From: Candidatus Omnitrophota bacterium
GTDB lineage: Bacteria; Omnitrophota; Gorgyraeia; Duberdicusellales; 4484-171
Direction: 5' to 3'
NCBI GenBank assembly: GCA_020352775.1
Contig: CP070684.1
Span: 520,421-557,969, forward strand
DNA length: 37,549 nt
Shown piece by piece: positions 15,621 through 27,520 of the stretch. The notes below the pieces were generated by a model, which did not search any database, was not told where the DNA came from, and saw only the letters and a program-made list of their open reading frames with translations. Position 1 is the stretch's first letter. Each line of letters begins with the position of its first letter. The translations under genes and the position numbers were made by a program.

Positions 15621-15632
15621 AATAAAACTTTC

Positions 15633-15677
15633 AGGACAAAGGCGTCCTTATGCCAAAGGGGCGCTTTTTTTATTTTT
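15633..15677 (+). promoter_or_regulatory. ANTAR-type RNA hairpin overlapping an intrinsic terminator (module N1)
   Basis: AGGAC-AAAGGC-GTCCT (hexaloop A1/G4, 15633-48), then GCC-AAAGG-GGC; alternative terminator stem GCGTCCTT (15642-49)/AGGGGCGC (15657-64) followed by a T-tract. Confidence 0.75.
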
Positions 15678-15714: not shown

Positions 15715-16575
15715 ATGAAGATACTAACTAAAGAAATACTAGCTCAAACTTCCGATACAAGGATTACCAAAATCGAAATCGAAGCCCCCCTTATAGCCAA
15801 AAAAGTTCAAGCCGGACAATTCGTTCTTTTGATGGTCACTGAAAAAGGGGAAAGAATCCCTTTGACTGTTGTCGGTAACGATCCCCAACGCGAGAGTATA
15901 ACTCTTATTTTTCAGGAAGTTGGGTATTCGACAAAAATTTTAGGTACCTTAAATATCGAAGATTCTCTATATGCCCTTGTCGGTCCCCTGGGACATCCTA
16001 CCCCCATAAAGAATTACGGCAGGATTCTGGTGATTGGAGGCGGGGTAGGAATTGCAGAAATCCTTCCGGTAGCTAAAGCGCTTAAGGAAGCAGGTAATGT
16101 GGTTTATTCGATTCTGGGCGCGCGGACAAAAGAATTACTGATTTTAAAAAATGAAATCAAGAGCTATTCCGATAACCTATATATAGCCACTGATGACGGC
16201 AGTTTAGGGCAAAAAGGATTTGTCAGTAATATTTTAGAAAAAATACTAAAAGAGGATAAGGATTTTCAATTGGTTTACTGCGTGGGTCCGGTTCCGATGA
16301 TGAAAGTCGTTTCTAATGTAACACGGCCTTATAAAATAAAAACATTAGTGTGTTTAAACGCCATTATGCTTGATGCAACAGGAATGTGCGGCGGTTGCCG
16401 TCTCATTGAAGGAGGAAAGGTCAAATTTTGCTGTGTCGACGGGCCGGAGTTTAATGGTCATGAGGTTGATTTTGATGAACTGATGCACCGACAGGGTCGG
16501 TTCATTAATGAAGAGAAAGTATCGTTACGTAAACTCAAACATAAATGCAAACTGGATTCGGGTAAAAAGAAATGA
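15715..16575 (+). CDS. nfnA: NfnA/SudB-like FAD/NAD [2Fe-2S] subunit of electron-bifurcating transhydrogenase
   Basis: GERIPLT, GPLG.P, GGGVG.A, TDDGS.G, GPVPMM, D.TGMCGGCR...CVDGPEF. Confidence 0.82.
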   Translation: MKILTKEILAQTSDTRITKIEIEAPLIAKKVQAGQFVLLMVTEKGERIPLTVVGNDPQRESITLIFQEVGYSTKILGTLNIEDSLYALVGPLGHPTPIKNYGRILVIGGGVGIAEILPVAKALKEAGNVVYSILGARTKELLILKNEIKSYSDNLYIATDDGSLGQKGFVSNILEKILKEDKDFQLVYCVGPVPMMKVVSNVTRPYKIKTLVCLNAIMLDATGMCGGCRLIEGGKVKFCCVDGPEFNGHEVDFDELMHRQGRFINEEKVSLRKLKHKCKLDSGKKK

Positions 16576-17969
16576 AAAGAAAAAAGCCTGAAGGACAAAT
16601 AACAAAAATCCCCTTAAAGCAAAGGAGACGTACGTTTACGGAAGTCTCCAGGGGTTTTAGCCTCCCGGAGGCACTTAAGGAAGCATGCCGCTGTCTTCAA
16701 TGTAAAGAGCCAATGTGTAAGGCGGGTTGTCCGGCAGGCATTGACATTAAAGAATTTATCAGACTAATCCAGGAAAAAAACTATATGGGTGCAGTTAAGA
16801 AAATAAAAGAGACTAATAATTTGCCGGGAGTATGTGGCCGGGTGTGCCCCCAGGAAGAACAATGCCAGCTTTACTGTATCTTAAAGAATAAAGGCAATGC
16901 TATCAAAATCGGGTACCTGGAAAGGTTTGTGGCTGATTGGGAGCTTGAGCACGCAGTGCAATATAGAGTGGCACATATTCAGCAGCAAAAACCAACTAAG
17001 GTTGCAGTAATTGGTTCAGGGCCAGCTGGCCTTACCTGCGCAGCGGATTTAGTCCAAGAAGGATTTGAAGTTCATTTATTTGAAGCATTGCACAAACCCG
17101 GTGGAGTTCTTGTGTATGGCATCCCAGAATTCAGACTTCCTAAACATATCGTTAACGAAGAGGTAGATTATATTGAAAGTCTGGGGGTTGCGGTTCATAA
17201 AAACTTTTTGGTCGGCAGAACTAAAACTATTGATGAGTTAAAAAATGAAGGGTTTAAAGCTTTTTTTATCGGAGTAGGAGCCGGGGCACCTAAATTTTTA
17301 GGGATTCCGGGTGAGATTTTAAATGGGGTTTATTCGGCAAATGAATTCCTTACCCGGGTTAATTTAATGAAAGGTTATCGTTTTCCGGAATATGATACCC
17401 CGGTAACAGTGGGTAAAATAGTCGGCGTATTTGGGGGAGGAAACGTTGCTTTTGACTGCGCGCGTTCAGCATTACGTTTAGGTGCAGCTAAAGTTTGTAT
17501 GATTTATCGCCGTACTGAAACGGAAATGCCGGCACGGGATGAAGAAATAGAAAATGCAAAAGAAGAAGGTATAAAACTTCGCCTTTTAGTTTCACCTAAA
17601 GAGTTTATTGCCGATAAAAAAGGTAATATAAAAGGAGTGCGCTGTATTAAAAATAAGCTTGGTGAACCGGATTCATCCGGCAGGCGCTCACCTGTTCCTA
17701 TTCAAGGCTCGAAATTTACCATTAAAATTGATACCGCCATTGTAGCCATCGGCACCATGGCGAATCCGCTCCTGCTTCAGACAATCCCAGGGTTAGAGTT
17801 AACCTCAAAAGGTTACATTAATGTGAATGATAATTACCAGACTTCGGTTCCGGATATTTTTGCCGGGGGAGATATTGTAAGCGGTTCGGCAACTGTAATA
17901 AGCGCAATCCAGCAGGCAAAGCTTGCTGCCAAATCCATAAAAGATTATCTTAGCGCCAGCGGCGCTTAA
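16572..17969 (+). CDS. nfnB: NfnB/SudA (GltD-like) NADPH flavoprotein with two Fe-S clusters
   Basis: RCLQC...C..GCP, CGRVCPQE.QC...C, GSGPAGL, YGIPEFRLPK, GGGNVA.D, AGGD; ATGA overlap with nfnA. Confidence 0.82.
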   Translation: MKRKKPEGQITKIPLKQRRRTFTEVSRGFSLPEALKEACRCLQCKEPMCKAGCPAGIDIKEFIRLIQEKNYMGAVKKIKETNNLPGVCGRVCPQEEQCQLYCILKNKGNAIKIGYLERFVADWELEHAVQYRVAHIQQQKPTKVAVIGSGPAGLTCAADLVQEGFEVHLFEALHKPGGVLVYGIPEFRLPKHIVNEEVDYIESLGVAVHKNFLVGRTKTIDELKNEGFKAFFIGVGAGAPKFLGIPGEILNGVYSANEFLTRVNLMKGYRFPEYDTPVTVGKIVGVFGGGNVAFDCARSALRLGAAKVCMIYRRTETEMPARDEEIENAKEEGIKLRLLVSPKEFIADKKGNIKGVRCIKNKLGEPDSSGRRSPVPIQGSKFTIKIDTAIVAIGTMANPLLLQTIPGLELTSKGYINVNDNYQTSVPDIFAGGDIVSGSATVISAIQQAKLAAKSIKDYLSASGA

Positions 17970-18027: not shown

Positions 18028-19371
<1,344 letters not shown>

Positions 19372-19410: not shown

Positions 19411-19439
19411 TTGACAAATTTAAAATAGTGTGTTATATT
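19411..19439 (+). promoter_or_regulatory. sigma70 promoter of the glutamate-synthase-like gene leader
   Basis: TTGACA (19411-16), 17 nt spacer, extended TG.TATATT (19431-39). Confidence 0.7.
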
Positions 19440-19447
19440 TCTTCTAC

Positions 19448-19509
19448 GAAACACAAAGGTTGTGTTTCTTGGAAAGGACAAGGACGTTAAAAAAAGACGT
19501 CCTTTTTTT
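19448..19509 (+). promoter_or_regulatory. ANTAR dual hairpin plus terminator (module G1)
   Basis: P1 GAAACAC-AAAGGTT-GTGTTTC; P2 GAC-AAGGAC-GTT (A1/G4); terminator AAGGACGT (19480-87)/ACGTCCTT (19497-504) plus T-tract sequesters P2. Confidence 0.75.
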
Positions 19510-19526
19510 ATTTTTAGGTCCTTTCA

Positions 19527-19593
19527 TTCAAAGTTAGAAAACCGGATAATGGCGTCCTTTTTGACAGCAAAGACTGTTGGGGGGCGTTTTTTT
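19527..19593 (+). promoter_or_regulatory. ANTAR hairpin plus terminator (module G2)
   Basis: Weak P1 TTC-AAAGTTA-GAA; P2 GGAT-AATGGC-GTCC (19544-57); terminator GCGTCCT..TTGACAG-CAAAGA-CTGTTGG-GGGGCGT plus T7. Confidence 0.72.
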
Positions 19594-19598
19594 ATTTA

Positions 19599-19692
19599 GT
19601 CAATAACTTGCGTTTTTAAGGCGGGTTATTGACACGTTATAGGACGATGGCGTTCTAAGCCTGAACCAAAGGCATGGAACGCTATTTTTTTT
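19599..19692 (+). promoter_or_regulatory. Long hairpin, ANTAR hairpin and terminator (module G3)
   Basis: GTCAATAACTTGC...GCGGGTTATTGAC stem (19599-633); AGGAC-GATGGC-GTTCT (19641-56); terminator TGGCGTTCTA (19648-57)/TGGAACGCTA (19675-84) plus T8. Confidence 0.72.
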
Positions 19693-19721
19693 GAGTCGAT
19701 ATACAGCAAAAGGAGGTAAAA

Positions 19722-21344
19722 ATGAATTTACAACAACCAAACGCAAACGAGGCATTACAAACTGCCAACCGCTCCAGGAGCGTATCGCCCCTATCGGGAA
19801 TTTGCACGCGTTGCATCGACGGCTGCCGGGGAAATTGTGATATTTTCAAGGCAACATTTAGGGGCCGGGAAGTGATTTATCCTGGGCCTTATGGCGCGGT
19901 GACTGCCGGCGGGGATAAGAATTATCCTCTGGATTACTCTCATCTTAACATTCAGGGCTATGCGATGGATGCTAAGGGTCTTCCTGAAGGGGTTGAGGCT
20001 AATCCTGATACTGCTACGTTCCCTGCGGTTGATACCGAAACTGATTATGGCTGGAATAAAAAGGTAAAAATGTGCGTACCTATTTTTACTGGTGCCCTTG
20101 GTTCTACGGAAATTGCACGAAGAAACTGGGAGCATTTTGCAGTGGGTGCTGCGATTTCAGGAATTACTCTGGTTTGCGGAGAAAATGTTTGTGGAATCGA
20201 CCCTAAATTAGAGCTAGATTCCAACGGAAAAATAAAAAAAGCACCTGATATGGATCGTAGAATTGAAGTTTATAAAAGATTCCACGAAGGCTATGGAGAG
20301 ATTTTGGTCCAGATGAACGTTGAAGATACCCGTTTAGGTGTTGCGGAATACGTAAGAAAAAAACATAATCTGGAAACCATTGAACTTAAATGGGGCCAGG
20401 GCGCAAAGTGCATCGGTGGTGAGATTAAGGTTAACACCATTGAACGAGCCCGGGAACTTAAAAAACGCGGTTACATTGTCACCCCCGACCCTACCTTGCA
20501 TTCGGTTCAAGAAGCATACCGGGTAGGGGAAATCAAAGAGTTTGAGCGTCATTCCCGTTTGGGATTTGTAACCGAAGGGGCTTTCTTCGATGAAATCCAA
20601 CGGTTAAGAGATTTAGGCTTTAAGCGCATAACCTTAAAAACCGGAGCTTATCCGATGCGCGAATTAGCCATGGCAATTAAATATTCATCACTTGCAGGAA
20701 TTGATCTTCTTACAGTTGATGGTGCAGGGGGCGGAACAGGAATGAGTCCCTGGAGAATGATGCAAGAGTGGGGTGTGCCTACTTTTTATCTGCAATCCAT
20801 GACTTATGAAATCTGCGAGAAACTTAAGAAAAAAGGCATGCGTGTTCCGGATATTGCCATTGCCGGCGGCTTTTCATCGGAAGACCATGTGTTTAAAGTG
20901 CTTGCAATGGGAGCTCCTTACGTAAAAGCAGTTTGTATGGGGCGCGCACTTATGATTCCGGGTATGGTTGGTAAAAATATCGGGGAATGGATTAAAAACA
21001 ATGATTTGCCTAAAACAGTTTCAACCTATGGCAGCACCCCCGAGGAAATCTTTATCGGATATGAAGAATTAATAGATAAATACGGTAAAGAAATGAAAAA
21101 TATCCCTCTGGGTGCAGTGGGAGTTTACTGCTTCACTCAGAAAATAAAGGTCGGCTTGCAGCAACTTATGGCCGGCAGCAGAAATTTTAGGATAAACAGT
21201 ATTTCAAGAAAAGACCTGATGTGTCTCACTGAAGAAGCAGCAAAGGTATCCGGGATACCTTATGTAATGGATGCTTACCGCAAAGAGGCAGAACAAATTT
21301 TGGACAGCGAAGTGAAAGCTCGGTTTAAAGCTGTAAAACACTAA
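19722..21344 (+). CDS. Stand-alone FMN-binding glutamate synthase family protein with an N-terminal 4-Cys motif
   Basis: IELKWGQGAK..GG, DGAGGGTG, AGG......FK..AMGA; CTRCIDGCRGNC; no amidotransferase domain; SD AAGGAGGT. Confidence 0.85.
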   Translation: MNLQQPNANEALQTANRSRSVSPLSGICTRCIDGCRGNCDIFKATFRGREVIYPGPYGAVTAGGDKNYPLDYSHLNIQGYAMDAKGLPEGVEANPDTATFPAVDTETDYGWNKKVKMCVPIFTGALGSTEIARRNWEHFAVGAAISGITLVCGENVCGIDPKLELDSNGKIKKAPDMDRRIEVYKRFHEGYGEILVQMNVEDTRLGVAEYVRKKHNLETIELKWGQGAKCIGGEIKVNTIERARELKKRGYIVTPDPTLHSVQEAYRVGEIKEFERHSRLGFVTEGAFFDEIQRLRDLGFKRITLKTGAYPMRELAMAIKYSSLAGIDLLTVDGAGGGTGMSPWRMMQEWGVPTFYLQSMTYEICEKLKKKGMRVPDIAIAGGFSSEDHVFKVLAMGAPYVKAVCMGRALMIPGMVGKNIGEWIKNNDLPKTVSTYGSTPEEIFIGYEELIDKYGKEMKNIPLGAVGVYCFTQKIKVGLQQLMAGSRNFRINSISRKDLMCLTEEAAKVSGIPYVMDAYRKEAEQILDSEVKARFKAVKH

Positions 21345-21400: not shown

Positions 21401-21559
21401 ATGAATGACAAAGGTCTGTGTCTAACATGTGCATATGATAAACGCTGCTTTTTCCCGCGAAAATACCCTGTATTTGAATGTACTGAGTTTTCAGCGGTAA
21501 AAGTCAAGCCAGCAGCGCTGAAACGAAAGAAAATCAAAAGAAAACATCCATCCTGTTAA
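21401..21559 (+). CDS. Small Cys-rich protein, 52 aa (not in the ORF track)
   Basis: AGGAGG at 21389-94, 6 nt before ATG; MNDKGLCLTCAYDKRCFFPRKYPVFECTEFSAVKVKPAALKRKKIKRKHPSC*; Cx2C-x5-C-x10-C plus a basic tail. Confidence 0.7.
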   Translation: MNDKGLCLTCAYDKRCFFPRKYPVFECTEFSAVKVKPAALKRKKIKRKHPSC

Positions 21560-21686: not shown

Positions 21687-23006
21687 ATGACACGGCAAAT
21701 GCTGCTAAAAACTGTAAAAAGCAAAAAGGTAGGGTTTGTGCGTCTCTGGTTTACGGATGTGTTAGGGTTTTTAAAAAGCTTTGATATGCCTGTCGAAGAG
21801 CTGGCCGGAGCACTGAAGGACGGTATGGGCTTTGATGGTTCATCTATCGAAGGTTTTTCGCGGATCGAAGAATCAGATATGGTGGTAAAGCCTGACCCGA
21901 ACACCTTTCAACTTCTGCCCTGGATTGAAGAAGATAGGCCTGTGGCGAGAATGTTTTGCGATGTGGTGGAGCCGGGAGGAAAGCCCTTTACCGGTGATCC
22001 GCGCTATGTCTTAAAAAGAAATTTAGAAGAAGCTAAACGTATGGGGTTTACTTTTTACGTAGGGCCGGAACTGGAATATTTTTATTTTCGCAATAAAGGT
22101 GGGACCCAGATTCTTGATCGCGGAGGTTATTTTGATCTTACTCCTATGGATATTGGACAAGATTTGAGGCGTCAAACCGTGGTGATGCTTGAGAAAATGG
22201 GCATTGATGTTGAATATTGGCATCATGAAGTAGCGTCGTCGCAACACGAAATCGATTTGCGCTACAACGACGCGCTTGCTATGGCCGATGGTGTTATGAC
22301 CTATCGTATGATAGTAAAAGAAGTAGCAATGCAGAACAATCTTTATGCTACATTTATGCCAAAACCGATATACGGGATAAATGGAAGCGGCATGCACACG
22401 CATATGTCATTGTTTAAAGGAAACCGAAATGCTTTCTTCGATCCGAACGATAAATATCATCTCTCAAAAATAGCTAAATACTTTATTGCCGGATTATTGA
22501 AACATGCCCGGGAAATTTGTTCAGTTTGCTGTCAGTGGGTAAATTCCTATAAGCGATTAGTTCCCGGCCATGAAGCTCCGGTTTATGTCTCTTGGGCGCA
22601 AAAAAACCGCTCGGCCCTTGTCCGTGTCCCTGTATATAAACCAGGAAAAGAAAAAGCAACACGCGTTGAATTGCGCAATCCAGATCCTGCCTGCAATCCC
22701 TATCTGGCGTTTGCGGTGATGCTGGCGGCAGGGTTAGAAGGCATCAAAAGAAAATACCCTTTAGCGAAAGAGGTGTCCAGCAATATTTACGAAATGACTG
22801 AAAATGAAAGGAAAAATGTCGGAATAGAATCTTTGCCCGATGATTTATTTGAAGCAATCAATATCACTGAAAAAAGTGCGTTGGTGAGAAAAGCTTTAGG
22901 AGATAAAGTCTTTGAATTCTTTATCCGCAACAAGAAGGATGAATGGAGTGACTATCGAAAGCAAATTACGAAGTATGAGCTGGATAAATATCTCCCGATT
23001 CTGTAA
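21687..23006 (+). CDS. glnA: Glutamine synthetase type I (alpha-like, 439 aa)
   Basis: FDGSSIEGF.RI.ESDM, GPELEY, HHEVA..QHEI, TFMPKP..GINGSGMH.H.SL, NSYKRLVPG.EAP, ELR.PDP.CNPYL. Confidence 0.96.
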   Translation: MTRQMLLKTVKSKKVGFVRLWFTDVLGFLKSFDMPVEELAGALKDGMGFDGSSIEGFSRIEESDMVVKPDPNTFQLLPWIEEDRPVARMFCDVVEPGGKPFTGDPRYVLKRNLEEAKRMGFTFYVGPELEYFYFRNKGGTQILDRGGYFDLTPMDIGQDLRRQTVVMLEKMGIDVEYWHHEVASSQHEIDLRYNDALAMADGVMTYRMIVKEVAMQNNLYATFMPKPIYGINGSGMHTHMSLFKGNRNAFFDPNDKYHLSKIAKYFIAGLLKHAREICSVCCQWVNSYKRLVPGHEAPVYVSWAQKNRSALVRVPVYKPGKEKATRVELRNPDPACNPYLAFAVMLAAGLEGIKRKYPLAKEVSSNIYEMTENERKNVGIESLPDDLFEAINITEKSALVRKALGDKVFEFFIRNKKDEWSDYRKQITKYELDKYLPIL

Positions 23007-23068: not shown

Positions 23069-23773
23069 ATGCCAAAGGCATCTTACAAAGAATATATCAA
23101 TACTCTAAGCAAAATCAGCAAAGCGATCACCTCTGAGCTATACCTGGAGGATGTGCTTAAGCTAATTGTTACCCTTACTGCGAATGTAATGAAGGCCAAG
23201 ATCTGCTCACTCTGGCTTCTGGATAAAAATACAAAAGAACTGAAAATAAGAGCCACTCAAGCCATGGGGCAGGAGTATTTAAAAGAACGCAGCCTCAGAT
23301 TAGGAGAGGGTATCGTGGGATTGGTCGCAAAAGAAAAAAAACCAATTGTGATTCTTGATGTTGTAAAGGATCTTAAATACAAAGAGAAACAGCTTGCAAA
23401 AAAAGAAGGTCTGATTTCGATGTTGAGTGTACCGATGATGGTAAAGAAAAAAGTGGTCGGAGTAATAAACCTTTACACCACCACTCCTTATAAATTCAGC
23501 AAAAGCGATATCGATCTTTTAAGTGCTGTTGCCAATCAGGCTGCGGTGGCAATTGAAAATACTGAGCTGATGGTTAAAACTAGAATTATCCAGGAGGAGC
23601 TAGATACCAGAAAGAAGGTAGAGCGGGCAAAGGGAATATTGATGAACGAGCAAAGCCTGACCGAAGAAGAGGCTTATAATCTTATTCGTAAATCCAGCAT
23701 GAACAAACGTGTTCCTATGAAAGATATTGCCGAGGCCATAATTCTTTCTCATGAAATTAAAGGTAATAAATAA
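23069..23773 (+). CDS. GAF-ANTAR one-component RNA-binding antiterminator
   Basis: N-terminal GAF (GEGIVG.VA, SMLSVP, VGVINL, ANQAAVAIEN) and C-terminal ANTAR (RKKVERAKGILM....LTEEEAY.LIRK.SM..R..MKDIAEAI). Confidence 0.93.
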   Translation: MPKASYKEYINTLSKISKAITSELYLEDVLKLIVTLTANVMKAKICSLWLLDKNTKELKIRATQAMGQEYLKERSLRLGEGIVGLVAKEKKPIVILDVVKDLKYKEKQLAKKEGLISMLSVPMMVKKKVVGVINLYTTTPYKFSKSDIDLLSAVANQAAVAIENTELMVKTRIIQEELDTRKKVERAKGILMNEQSLTEEEAYNLIRKSSMNKRVPMKDIAEAIILSHEIKGNK

Positions 23774-23784
23774 AGGAGGGTAAG

Positions 23785-24021
23785 ATGCCTTACAATCAGC
23801 AACTAGACGAGTGTTTGTTTACCAAAGCCTGGGAAGGTGAAGCAACAAGGTTAACCGTTAGTGTTTACTCTTACAATAAAGGACCTAAAAAGCTACAAAT
23901 TGTAAGGGAGAATAAAGACACCGAAGGCAATTTTAGGTTTACCCGCTTGGGCAGAATCAGCAAAGAGGAGCTTGAGGCTATTCTTCCTTTGATTAAGGAA
24001 GCGCAAGGTAACTTGGAGTAG
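23785..24021 (+). CDS. Small hypothetical protein, possibly a PC4/YdbC-like nucleic-acid-binding fold
   Basis: SD AAGGAGG; predicted beta-rich N-part (VSVYSYN.G.KKLQI.R) followed by a C-terminal helix (ISKEELEAIL). The fold call is inference. Confidence 0.7.
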   Translation: MPYNQQLDECLFTKAWEGEATRLTVSVYSYNKGPKKLQIVRENKDTEGNFRFTRLGRISKEELEAILPLIKEAQGNLE

Positions 24022-24049: not shown

Positions 24050-24077
24050 TTGACAAGTAATTTTTTTGTGGTATAGT
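24050..24077 (+). promoter_or_regulatory. sigma70 promoter of the carB leader
   Basis: TTGACA (24050-55), 16 nt spacer, TG.TATAGT (24069-77). Confidence 0.7.
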
Positions 24078-24097: not shown

Positions 24098-24160
24098 TTC
24101 TACAAAGACAGTGGAAGAAAAAGGCAAAGAAGCCCCCGGTAAAATGACGGGGGTTTTTTT
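24098..24160 (+). promoter_or_regulatory. ANTAR dual hairpin plus terminator (module C1)
   Basis: P1 TTCTAC-AAAGACA-GTGGAA; P2 GGC-AAAGAA-GCC (A1/G4 hexaloop, 24123-34); terminator GCCCCCG (24132-38)/CGGGGGT (24148-54) plus T-tract. Confidence 0.8.
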
Positions 24161-24162
24161 CT

Positions 24163-24249
24163 GTCAATAAGCATTAGAGTGGATTGATGCATTGAGTAGG
24201 ACGATGGCGTCCTTCTTGCTACGGCGCAGTAGAGGGACGCTTTATTCTT
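24163..24249 (+). promoter_or_regulatory. Long hairpin, ANTAR hairpin and terminator (module C2)
   Basis: TCAAT..GCATTAG-AGTGGA-TTGATGC-ATTGA; AGGAC-GATGGC-GTCCT (24198-213); terminator GCGTCCTTCT (24207-16)/AGAGGGACGC (24231-40) plus TTTATTCTT. Confidence 0.75.
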
Positions 24250-24283
24250 ATCTGAGAGTTTTTATTAATGAAGGAGAGCGGTA

Positions 24284-27200
24284 ATGCCAAGACGCAAAGA
24301 TATTAAAAAGGTATTGATTATCGGTTCCGGGCCGATCATTATCGGACAGGCCTGTGAATTTGATTATTCCGGTACTCAGGCTTGTAAGGCATTAAAAGAA
24401 GAAGGCTATGAGGTCGTGTTGGTCAATTCCAACCCCGCTACGATCATGACTGACCCTGGTATGGCTCACAAAACATATATCGCGCCCCTTACGGTTGAAA
24501 GCCTTGAAAAAATCATCGAAAAAGAAAAACCTGATGCTCTTCTTCCTAATCTAGGCGGCCAGACCGGTCTTAATCTAGCCTCGAACCTCTATAAGGCTGG
24601 GATTTTAGATAAATACAAGGTGGAGGTTATTGGGGTTAAGGCAGATGCGATTGAGCGCGGCGAAGACCGTCTTATTTTTAAAGAAACCATGAATAAGTTG
24701 GGGATTCCTTTGCCTAAATCTGAGATTAGCCGCTCAATCCAGGAGGCAGAGGCTATCGCGGAGAGGTTAAAATACCCAGTGGTATTGCGCCCTGCCTATA
24801 CTCTGGGCGGAACCGGCGGAGGAATTGCTTACAACATCGAAGAACTAAGAACTATTGTCAGCAGGGGTCTTTCCGCAAGCATTGTTAATCAAGTCTTGGT
24901 AGAAGAGGCGGTGATTGGCTGGGAAGAGTTAGAACTTGAAGTAGTGCGTGATGAAAAAAATCAAAAGATAACGGTCTGCTTTATTGAAAACATCGATGCG
25001 ATGGGTGTACATACCGGTGACAGTTTCTGTGCGGCACCGATGCTTACCGTGCCTGAAAAATTACAGAAAAAGATGCAGGAATATTCCTATAAGATTGTCG
25101 ATGCCATTGGAGTGGTGGGCGGAACAAATATCCAATTTGCTCACAATTTAGAAGATGATCGATTGGTGGTAATTGAAATCAATCCTCGTACTTCCCGTTC
25201 GTCAGCTCTTGCTTCTAAAGCAACCGGCTTTCCTATTGCAAGAATTTCAACTAAGCTTGCCGCAGGTTTAAGTATGGATGAAATCCCTTATTGGCGAAAA
25301 GGTACGCTTGAGAAATACGAACCCTGGGGAGATTATGTGGTTATTAAGTTTGCGCGTTGGGCTTTTGAGAAATTCCCCAAAGCCAAAGACATCCTCGGAA
25401 CCCAAATGAAGGCTGTGGGGGAGGTAATGAGTATTGGTAAGAATTTTAAGGAAGCTTTCCAGAAGGCTATTCGTTCTTTGGAGATAAAACGTTATGGTTT
25501 AGGGCTGTCTAAATTTAAAGAGCTTGACTTTGCAGAGCTTCAAGCAAGGCTTACTTTTCCTTCCAGCGAACGCATATTTTTGGTATACGAAGCTTTGCGC
25601 AGAGGTATATCCGTAGAAGAACTCTATAAGGTGACCCATATCGGACGCTGGTTCATCAATGAAATGAAGGAGCTGGTCGAACTTGAAGAATACCTGCTAA
25701 CCAAGAGCTGGAATGATTTGCCAGCTAAAGATTTAGCTAAAGCAAAAGAATGGGGTTTTTCAGACCGGTGCCTGGCAGATATTTTTGGCATCGCCGAGGC
25801 GCAAATAAGAAACAGAAGGATTGAGATCGGTAAAGCCGGCTGCTTTGATGCAGTGCCGGTAAGCGGAGTGGAAAACGCCGCTTATTATTATTCCACTTAT
25901 AATGGTGAGGATAAGGTGCCGGTATCATCCAATAAAAAGATAATGATTTTAGGAGGGGGGCCTAACCGTATTGGTCAGGGTATTGAGTTTGACTATACCT
26001 GTGTTCATGCGGCATTTGCTTTGCGCGATGAAGGCTATGAATCCATCATGATAAACTGTAATCCTGAAACGGTCTCAACTGACTATGATACATCAAATAA
26101 GCTTTATTTTGAACCGTTAACAGTAGAAGATGTCTTGACCATCTATGAAAAAGAAAAGCCCGAAGGTGTGATTGTACAATTCGGGGGACAAACCCCGTTA
26201 AATATCGCTCAAGAGTTAAAAGATAACGGGGTAAATATTTTAGGAACCTCTCCCGAAAGTATTCGTTTAGCAGAAGACCGGGAATATTTTCGAAAGAGGA
26301 TGCTTGAATTAAATGTCCCTCAGCCTGAAGGTGGCACTGCTCGTTCACTCCATGAGGCGATCGAGATTGCCAACAAAATAGGGTACCCACTTATGGTGCG
26401 GCCATCATTTGTTTTGGGCGGTCGAGGAATGGAGATTATTTACGATGAGATAATGTTAAAAAGATATGCTCAAGAAGCTATTCAGGTCAGCCCTGAATAC
26501 CCCATGCTCATTGACCGCTTTCTGGAGCAGGCAATCGAGGCTGAAGTTGATGCTCTTTCAGACGGCCAAGATATTTTTATTGCTGCGGTTATGGAACATA
26601 TCGAATTAGCAGGTGTACATTCTGGTGATTCCGCATGTGCGATTCCACCCCGGACCCTTAAAGAAAAACACCTGAGTGATATTAAAAAGTATACTGCTCA
26701 AATCGCTAAAGAACTTAAAGTTGTGGGGCTTATGAATATTCAATATGCGATACACGAAAACAAAGTGTACATCCTAGAAGCGAATCCGCGGGCTTCACGT
26801 ACGGTTCCTTTAGTATCCAAGGTGACCGGAGCACCGATTGCACGCATTGCTACTCAGATTATGCTCGGAAAAAAAATAAAAGATTTTCCGGAATTAAAAA
26901 AGTGCACCCCTCGTTTCGTGGGGGTTAAAGAGGCAGTATTTCCGTTTAATATGTTTCCGGAGGTCGACCCCTTATTGGGTCCGGAAATGCGAGCAACCGG
27001 TGAAGTTATGGGTATGGCTGATACTTTTGGCCTTGCGTTTTATCTTGCTGAAGAAGCTGCCGGCTCAAAACTACCCATTGAAGGAAATGCGCTTCTTACT
27101 GTAGCTGATAAAGATAAAAAGTTTTTACTTCCCATTGCGCAGCGTCTTAAGAAGCTGGGATTTAATATTTATGCTACTGAAAGAACTAGCAAGTTCTTGA

Positions 27201-27520
27201 AAGAAAACAAGATTGAAAACACCGAAATCAAGAAAGTACACGAAGGACGCCCCAATATCGTTGATGCTATTAAAAACAAGGATATCAATCTTATTATCAA
27301 CACGCCTGTGGGGCGCAGCTCCAAATACGACGACAGCCACATCCGTATTATGGCCATACAACACAAAGTTCCCTACATTACATCAATGGCCGCTGCCCAA
27401 GCTAGTGTGGAAGGGATCGAGGTAACAAAAAAAGGTAAAATCTTGCCCAAAGCACTGCAAGATTATTATAAAGATAACTCATTTGCCGAAAAAAGTCAAA
27501 AAGCATGTAAGAAATCGTGA
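24284..27520 (+). CDS. carB: Carbamoyl-phosphate synthase large subunit
   Basis: IGSGPIIIGQACEFDYSG, IEINPRTSRSSALASKATGFPIA, GGGPNRIGQGIEFDY, NPRASRTVP and a C-terminal MGS-like domain. Confidence 0.97.
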   Translation: MPRRKDIKKVLIIGSGPIIIGQACEFDYSGTQACKALKEEGYEVVLVNSNPATIMTDPGMAHKTYIAPLTVESLEKIIEKEKPDALLPNLGGQTGLNLASNLYKAGILDKYKVEVIGVKADAIERGEDRLIFKETMNKLGIPLPKSEISRSIQEAEAIAERLKYPVVLRPAYTLGGTGGGIAYNIEELRTIVSRGLSASIVNQVLVEEAVIGWEELELEVVRDEKNQKITVCFIENIDAMGVHTGDSFCAAPMLTVPEKLQKKMQEYSYKIVDAIGVVGGTNIQFAHNLEDDRLVVIEINPRTSRSSALASKATGFPIARISTKLAAGLSMDEIPYWRKGTLEKYEPWGDYVVIKFARWAFEKFPKAKDILGTQMKAVGEVMSIGKNFKEAFQKAIRSLEIKRYGLGLSKFKELDFAELQARLTFPSSERIFLVYEALRRGISVEELYKVTHIGRWFINEMKELVELEEYLLTKSWNDLPAKDLAKAKEWGFSDRCLADIFGIAEAQIRNRRIEIGKAGCFDAVPVSGVENAAYYYSTYNGEDKVPVSSNKKIMILGGGPNRIGQGIEFDYTCVHAAFALRDEGYESIMINCNPETVSTDYDTSNKLYFEPLTVEDVLTIYEKEKPEGVIVQFGGQTPLNIAQELKDNGVNILGTSPESIRLAEDREYFRKRMLELNVPQPEGGTARSLHEAIEIANKIGYPLMVRPSFVLGGRGMEIIYDEIMLKRYAQEAIQVSPEYPMLIDRFLEQAIEAEVDALSDGQDIFIAAVMEHIELAGVHSGDSACAIPPRTLKEKHLSDIKKYTAQIAKELKVVGLMNIQYAIHENKVYILEANPRASRTVPLVSKVTGAPIARIATQIMLGKKIKDFPELKKCTPRFVGVKEAVFPFNMFPEVDPLLGPEMRATGEVMGMADTFGLAFYLAEEAAGSKLPIEGNALLTVADKDKKFLLPIAQRLKKLGFNIYATERTSKFLKENKIENTEIKKVHEGRPNIVDAIKNKDINLIINTPVGRSSKYDDSHIRIMAIQHKVPYITSMAAAQASVEGIEVTKKGKILPKALQDYYKDNSFAEKSQKACKKS

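Follow-up and report, generated by a model that had tools for sequence, protein, structure and literature searches.

The locus described here raises the question of why a single gene should be preceded by three transcription terminators, one behind the other. The window (the whole stretch of DNA that was analysed, 37,549 nucleotides) is part of a single contig of 1,275,267 bases with 39.6% G+C, from the genome of a Candidatus Omnitrophota bacterium that is estimated to be 84.6% complete. Omnitrophota are uncultured, and their nitrogen control is known from sequence alone. Between gdhA and a gene for a glutamate-synthase-like protein of 540 residues lies an untranslated leader (19446-19721) with three hairpins in series, each followed by a U-tract. 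We consider it probable that three transcription attenuators act one after another in this leader, each of them dependent on an ANTAR-domain protein. The genes around it are as follows.

15715-16575, + strand: nfnA-like gene
16572-17969, + strand: nfnB/gltD-like gene
18043-19371, + strand: gdhA
19722-21344, + strand: glutamate-synthase-like gene, 540 residues (ATG at 19722; FMN-type domain PF01645, E 2.1e-14)
21401-21559, + strand: Cys-rich open reading frame of 52 residues, between the glutamate-synthase-like gene and glnA
21687-23006, + strand: glnA, type I glutamine synthetase
23069-23773, + strand: GAF-ANTAR gene (PF03861, 73 bits)
23785-24021, + strand: open reading frame of 78 residues, directly 3' of the GAF-ANTAR gene and 5' of the carB promoter
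24284-27520, + strand: carB

A search of NCBIfam returned no family for the 540-residue glutamate-synthase-like protein, for the 52-residue Cys-rich product or for the 78-residue product. Terminator prediction on the + strand from the 540-residue gene to the end of the ANTAR gene found none except one weak intragenic match, so that transcripts begun at the triple leader may continue into glnA and the ANTAR gene. A promoter match of 9 of 12 positions precedes glnA.

Anatomy of the leader

The elements of the leader are listed below from 5' to 3'; R1 is a covariance model of the module, the construction of which is described in the next section.

19411-19439, + strand: sigma-70-type promoter (-35 at 19411-19416, -10 at 19434-19439, TG at 19431-19432; 11 of 12 matches)
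19448-19468, + strand: P1 hairpin, just 3' of the predicted start (-7.8 kcal/mol; 7-nt loop here)
19477-19488, + strand: module 1 hexaloop hairpin (A1, G4; 3-bp stem), within the R1 match 19473-19510
19480-19515, + strand: terminator 1 (stem-loop 19480-19504, 9 pairs, -11.4 kcal/mol; U-tract 19503-19509)
19544-19557, + strand: module 2 hexaloop hairpin (A1, G4; 4-bp stem; -3.4 kcal/mol)
19551-19593, + strand: terminator 2 (stem 19551-19587 with an inner hairpin, 11 pairs, many of them G-U, -15.1 kcal/mol; U-tract 19587-19593; R1 match 19541-19597)
19599-19633, + strand: hairpin separating modules 2 and 3, with no U-tract (13 bp, -16.9 kcal/mol)
19640-19657, + strand: module 3 hexaloop hairpin (G1, G4; 6-bp stem; -6.0 kcal/mol)
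19647-19692, + strand: terminator 3 (stem 19647-19685 with an inner hairpin, -22.6 kcal/mol; U-tract 19685-19692; R1 match 19639-19692, the best in the genome at 48.8 bits)
19709-19716, + strand: Shine-Dalgarno sequence of the 540-residue glutamate-synthase-like gene

The promoter has a consensus -35 hexamer, a 17-nt spacer, a -10 hexamer that matches at five of six positions and a TG upstream of the -10. The initial annotation had proposed three hairpin and terminator modules in series, with T-tracts at about 19503, 19587 and 19685, and this proposal holds: the U-tracts are found at those coordinates, the hairpins fold, and each stable stem-loop leads directly into a tract of 7-8 U, the arrangement by which intrinsic terminators are recognized. 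The bases that form the 5' arm of each terminator can instead serve as the 3' arm of an ANTAR-type hairpin whose loop has six bases, and the two structures are mutually exclusive; both the elements and this exclusivity are shown by computation. The terminators (-11.4, -15.1 and -22.6 kcal/mol) are far stronger than the hexaloop hairpins that they overlap (-0.2, -3.4 and -6.0 kcal/mol), the first of which has a stability of about zero, reaching +0.9 or so when folded alone. This difference implies that termination is the default and that a stabilizing factor would be needed for the alternative fold to prevail. Open reading frames of 20-45 residues overlap the leader, and no ribosome-binding site was seen for them by eye.

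An internal promoter at TTGACA 19561 or 19629, which would bypass the upstream modules, had been named as a possible refutation of the serial arrangement. Our scan found no acceptable + strand -10 element after either hexamer, and neither hexamer is kept in the three more distant triple leaders described below; both candidates were rejected. The hairpin at 19599-19633 was considered as a repeated element and was also rejected, since the genome contains no second copy; of the five triple leaders, only those of the source genome (G000) and of G002 have it.

Folded as a whole, the leader reaches -95.7 kcal/mol compared with -61.2 +/- 5.0 kcal/mol for shuffled versions (z = -6.86), and none of 200 shuffles folds as well. 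When the modules are folded one at a time, none of 200 shuffles equals module 1 (z = -4.06) and none equals module 3 (z = -7.62), but module 2 does not stand out from its shuffles, 40 of 200 of which fold as well (z = -0.87). A simple terminator scan recovers two of the three leader terminators, a count that shows no excess over shuffles (2 versus 2.4 +/- 1.5). The hexaloop hairpins share a degenerate core of 14 bases, of which the window contains four copies, each on the + strand and spread over three leaders, where 0.01 copies are expected; none of 100 shuffles reaches four and the core is found nowhere else in the genome, although, since it was read off the same four sites, the count documents clustering and strand bias and is not an independent test. 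The signal beyond chance comes from the shared module. Rfam families searched over the window at their gathering scores gave no match, and no Rfam family fits the leader, where the best match below threshold (E <= 10) scores 23.9 bits against a cut-off of 56 and is not credible.

The module as an RNA family and its presumed regulator

Modules were collected with a script run over the window and the loci of relatives, which required a hexaloop stem, G4 and 7 of 8 terminator pairs; from its output, 33 modules of this and related genomes that were judged true were aligned. The terminator stem is 95.5% paired across these modules and the alternative hexaloop hairpin 91.9%, percentages that are inflated by construction because the script had demanded the hexaloop stem and the terminator pairs. 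Double changes occur in 6 of 9 pairs of the terminator stem; its covariation score is reached by none of 500 shuffles, and slid control partners pair at 46-65%. In the alternative hairpin 2 of 5 pairs show double changes, a number also reached by 227 of 500 shuffles, and the covariation score is reached by none of the 500. One alignment column covaries with both its terminator and its hexaloop partners, and three-way covariation of this sort is what the pairing of a terminator with an antiterminator predicts. The constancy of G4 was imposed by the selection filter; an A at loop position 2, which the selection did not require, is present in 33 of 33 modules.

R1, the covariance model of this alignment, covers one module type only. 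It has seven matches in the 1.28-Mb genome (E <= 7.1e-6), five of which had served in its training, and three of the seven fall within 220 nt in the triple leader. All seven are on the sense strand, upstream of nitrogen- or glutamine-linked genes. Apart from the triple leader, the modules of the source genome are these.

15631-15674, + strand: single module before nfnA-nfnB-gdhA, of the same type as those of the triple (R1, 47.9 bits)
24098-24250, + strand: carB leader with two terminators (24131-24155 and 24206-24241), behind a promoter at 24050-24077 (11 of 12 matches)
G000:C1:679501-679559, outside the window: R1 module after a good promoter and before a nagB-like gene (named by eye from the translation)
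G000:C1:1125677-1125735, outside the window: R1 module after a good promoter and before purL-purF-purM (named by eye from the translations)

The second carB module is of the same type as the modules of the triple leader and is an R1 match. The first (24098-24162) follows a hairpin with a 7-nt loop; it has a hexaloop and terminator sequence of another type and no R1 match, and it may represent a second module type recognized by the same ANTAR protein. With this qualification, the folds and R1 agree with the earlier count of one, two and three modules before nfnAB-gdhA, carB and the glutamate-synthase-like gene, respectively. The nagB-like and purLFM modules would extend the presumed regulon to glutamine-using pathways.

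A single regulator for all of these modules had also been proposed, and the genome is in keeping with this idea: the GAF-ANTAR gene at 23069-23773, 3.3 kb downstream of the leader in the same gene cluster, is the only ANTAR gene found, and each module overlaps a hexaloop hairpin of the ANTAR type. We presume that its product is the antiterminator of the leaders. The GAF part of this protein is similar to the N-terminal GAF regions in the models of PtsP and NifA, with scores that fall far short of the cut-offs for the full-length models. The GAF domains of PtsP and NifA sense nitrogen metabolites, and the likeness offers a lead on the signal, which may be nitrogen status. At 21 loci with relatives of the ANTAR protein, R1 gives only six matches (E <= 0.1), none of them in series upstream of the regulator.

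Antitermination through hexaloop hairpins by ANTAR proteins has been published (PMC3369931, PMC8934654), and a comparison with the published definitions places the modules as follows. They depart from the strict dual-hexaloop definition (Ramesh 2012), which calls for two adjacent stem-loops with hexanucleotide loops. Module 1 has one hexaloop hairpin together with the upstream P1, whose loop has 7 nt here and 6 nt in G021 and G033, and modules 2 and 3 each have one hexaloop hairpin together with an inner terminator hairpin, the 6-7-nt loop of which is of another type. Under the rule of A1 and G4 in the loop, modules 1 and 2 are A1/G4 and module 3 is G1/G4. A single hexaloop has been proposed as the minimal ANTAR motif (Walshe et al. 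2022, PMC8934654), and all three modules correspond to that definition, a G4 hairpin that excludes an intrinsic terminator; an ANTAR-domain protein is encoded nearby in the genome. The leader contains three complete sensor-plus-terminator units, which, with one ANTAR gene found, may respond to the same signal.

The system that invites the closest comparison is EutV/EutW with the eut leaders of Enterococcus faecalis (PMC3369931, PMC8934654), in which a G4 hexaloop hairpin likewise excludes an intrinsic terminator, the ANTAR protein is encoded in the locus and several terminators answer to one regulator. There, however, each terminator has two hexaloops, four terminators are spread between the genes of the operon and a phosphorylated receiver is the sensor, whereas here a single hexaloop hairpin is mostly found, three terminators share one leader and the sensor is a GAF domain. 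A link between ANTAR control and nitrogen genes, those for glutamate synthase in Desulfotomaculum among them, has been published, and the ANTAR nitrogen regulons predicted for Firmicutes (Ramesh et al. 2012, PMC3369931) have sites 5' of amt, P-II and nif genes and of genes for glutamine synthetase and glutamate synthase(-like) proteins. In supplementary file 6 of that study, Carboxydothermus has a site before an ANTAR gene that is followed by genes for glutamine synthetase and a glutamate-synthase-like protein, and Desulfotomaculum acetoxidans has two sites about 130 nt apart before one nif unit. Two further sites about 200 nt apart precede one regulator gene of D. acetoxidans (PMC3369931), so that series of two have already been listed. 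These regulons belong to another phylum, and the study does not seem to analyse the series, to describe a triple or to show one conserved as a unit. In Geobacter sulfurreducens, GnfK/GnfR provides an ANTAR regulator that overrides leader terminators of nifH, glnK and amtB, and premature termination was shown in mutants (PMC2995071); GnfR differs in being a two-component response regulator under an RpoN cascade, and we noticed no mention of serial terminators in that paper. GAF-ANTAR one-component regulators are common, and none is characterized in the literature that we searched. What is new here is a triple conserved as an ordered unit, the mostly single-hexaloop modules and the GAF sensor; ANTAR nitrogen regulons, two-site leaders and tandem riboswitches are in print.

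Conservation of the triple leader and alternative readings

A protein search of 61 genomes yielded 16 loci with an orthologue of the 540-residue gene (69-96% identity; two partial). The DNA upstream of each was read, and R1 was run on it with filters off, giving 17 genomes with the source genome included. This count of modules in orthologous leaders, which had been suggested as a check, revealed the triple in 5 of the 17 gene-carrying genomes: G000; G002, G035 and G021, which are of the same family as G000; and G044, which belongs to another family of the order. One module stands directly upstream of the orthologue in five genomes (G003, G049, G059, G048, G028) and ahead of an interposed gene in four (G057, G026, G034, G007). 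In G037 one terminator is accompanied by hexaloop hairpins of other kinds and R1 has no match, and no module was seen in the upstream DNA examined of G016 and G024.

The five triples can be aligned module to module in the same order, together with the promoter, both hexamers of which keep their position, and with P1, which is found at the same place in all five and in the leaders of G033 and G034, with loops of 6 or 7 nt. RNAalifold applied to this alignment recovers P1 and all three terminators, with compensatory changes in 11 of 64 pairs. The features conserved across genomes differ from one module position to the next, and an order of terminators from weak to strong recurs among the triples. 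Not every module is well preserved: one in G035 scores only 16.1 bits, and the middle module of G021 is degenerate, with no R1 match even with filters off. Conservation of the ordered triple is nevertheless shown by computation, as is its co-occurrence with ANTAR genes, two of which were found in each of G002, G035 and G021 and one in G044; in G049 none was found by an ANTAR domain search of the assembly, which is 94% complete, despite the serial terminators described below. In G044 the triple lies directly before the orthologue of the 540-residue gene. In G002, G035 and G021 the triple is followed by a second GAF-ANTAR gene (Pfam) and then by the orthologue, so that the leader driving the GAF-ANTAR gene would constitute autoregulation. 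The leader of G002 is nearly identical to the source leader and is also 3' of gdhA; it differs by the regulator gene between leader and 540-residue gene. The source GAF-ANTAR protein shares 79% identity with the copy in G002 that is not linked to the leader, and 63% with the leader-linked copy, which indicates that it is orthologous to the former and that the source genome is without the leader-linked paralogue.

These comparisons allow other readings of the leader to be weighed. The simplest is that hairpins and T-runs have arisen by chance in an AT-rich intergenic region and regulate nothing. The base composition of the genome and the failure of the simple terminator scan to exceed its shuffles would permit this, but the folding z-score of the leader, the motif count that none of 100 shuffles reaches and the conservation in other genera do not; the comparative data already contradict such a reading, and we give it practically no credence. 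A more serious possibility is that a regulatory role belongs to only one or two of the three: terminator 1 would serve mainly to end the nfnAB-gdhA transcript and the remainder would be redundant or decaying copies, so that the number of modules carries no logic. The stretch from the gdhA stop codon (19371) to the promoter is free of predicted terminators, and terminator 1 is therefore the first stop for gdhA transcripts; the hexaloop hairpin of module 1 is barely stable, module 2 is not better than its shuffles, the middle module of G021 has degenerated and most orthologous leaders have one module. On the other hand, five genomes from two families have retained the full set of three modules in the same sequence, with compensatory changes, and terminator 1 of G035 is also 3' of the conserved promoter although the upstream gene there is a different one. 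A role in terminating gdhA transcripts is in any case compatible with regulation, and we regard this reading as unlikely.

Slightly better placed, but still doubtful, is the notion that the modules are differentiated inputs, with different affinities or, in the relatives, serving two GAF-ANTAR paralogues, and that the leader forms a cascade or logic gate and an autoregulatory switch. The features peculiar to each module position, the two ANTAR genes in each of G002, G035 and G021, one of them directly behind the triple, and the orthology of the source protein to the other copy are all in its favor. G000 and G044, however, keep three modules with one ANTAR gene found, so that a second paralogue is not required, and the modules bear no sequence sign of different specificity. 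Finally, the short terminated leader RNAs might be abundant and functional in themselves, for example by acting as decoys for the ANTAR protein, in the manner of EutX/Rli55, which titrates EutV. A near-consensus promoter would yield many such RNAs with P1 and the hexaloop sites, and a sequestering RNA is known for EutV (PMC8934654). A terminated RNA would, however, contain the terminator in place of the hexaloop hairpin, leaving only P1 free, and we believe a decoy to be very improbable. The chain of three ANTAR-controlled attenuators is the reading that we carry forward.

Module number, threshold and steepness

In the mechanism that we favor, transcription would start at the promoter at 19411-19439 and, by default, each of the three intrinsic terminators would form in its turn and RNA polymerase would stop. 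In the alternative, bases of the terminator 5' arm would close the hairpin with a six-base loop and G4, the minimal ANTAR recognition element. The GAF-ANTAR protein, with its GAF domain in the active state (probably reflecting nitrogen status), would bind and stabilize these weak hairpins as they emerge, and a stabilized hexaloop hairpin would prevent the terminator from forming. Only polymerase that had passed all three gates would reach the glutamate-synthase-like gene and probably also the small open reading frame, glnA and the ANTAR gene. Protein binding, the signal, the direction of regulation and the independent, multiplicative action of the modules are what we infer in drawing this scheme. 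It predicts a very low level of expression without induction, a threshold above that of the one-module leaders of the regulon and a modest gain in steepness.

A toy model with independent and identical modules and a leak of 5-20% per terminator puts figures on these expectations. With three modules, basal expression is 1.25e-4 to 8e-3 of the maximum, the cube of the leak per terminator. The EC50 is 2.9-3.6 times that of one module with leak and 3.85 times without leak, and the effective Hill coefficient is only 1.17-1.24 with that leak and 1.17-1.26 over all settings. Across module numbers, basal expression falls roughly as a power of the count, the EC50 rises about 2-fold for two modules and 3-4-fold for three, and the effective Hill coefficient is only about 1.1-1.3. 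The initial annotation had suggested that the number of modules could set both graded thresholds and steepness. In this model the first part is reasonable, the EC50 being shifted by a factor of 2.9-3.9, whereas the second is weak. Module number would thus mainly set tightness and threshold and would do little for steepness, and real steepness would need cooperativity or feedback.

The layout in the relatives, with the regulator gene behind its own triple, suggests feedback. A bolder proposal, which we advance tentatively and think rather unlikely to hold in full, makes the triple leader an autoregulatory switch that is old and conserved: in G002, G035 and G021 a dedicated GAF-ANTAR paralogue would have to open its own three gates, tuned from weak to strong, and a hysteretic, all-or-none commitment could result. 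If this were true, positive feedback through three multiplicative checkpoints could commit a cell to the assimilation of glutamate and glutamine. The paralogue would then have been cut out, in the source genome, exactly between the leader and the glutamate-synthase-like gene, and the remaining regulator of that genome may feed back by readthrough into glnA and the ANTAR gene.

Repeated units in a leader have been described for tandem riboswitches (TPP doublets and c-di-GMP-I triplets; PMC9481103), in which sensor-plus-terminator units respond to the same signal and an independent decision between termination and readthrough at each unit leads to a more 'digital' output. In those leaders the RNA itself binds the metabolite, whereas here every unit would require the loading of a trans-acting protein, and the concentration of the regulator as well as that of the ligand would therefore set the output. 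Our search of the literature for ANTAR systems with tandem terminators found no paper, and it found no study of attenuator number in relation to leak, threshold or steepness for antiterminator proteins, a relation that has been studied for tandem riboswitches. The locus is a compact test set in which such a relation could be measured: one regulator and five leaders, three of them with one module, one with two and one with three, to which the relatives add natural variants with the regulator gene behind the triple. The conserved order of module types likewise supplies numerous natural variants from which the requirements of an ANTAR domain, other than a single hexaloop, could be worked out.

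Arrangements in series are not confined to the glutamate-synthase-like operon. In 85 genomes of the order, R1 has matches (E <= 1e-4) in 62, with 129 matches when the tables are summed, and matches no more than 200 nt apart on the same strand occur as triples in three genomes (G000, G002 and G044) and as pairs in three others (G035, G021 and G075). At E <= 1e-3, the sample of 61 genomes contains further pairs in G034, G033 and G049. In G034 two modules precede a gene for a small sigma-70 region 4 protein (Pfam; L034, G034:C13) and another pair precedes nifH, identified by eye; the pair in G033 precedes an ammonium transporter gene (Pfam). In G049 (L036, G049:C9) three terminators in series, two of which are R1 matches, precede a gene for a secreted-looking protein to which Pfam assigns no family. 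These counts make the series a recurrent minority layout in the lineage, and the triple goes with the glutamate-synthase-like operon. In a separate observation, at two loci with a single module (L013 and L017) long structured stretches of leader, about 150-230 nt, lie between the module and the gene.
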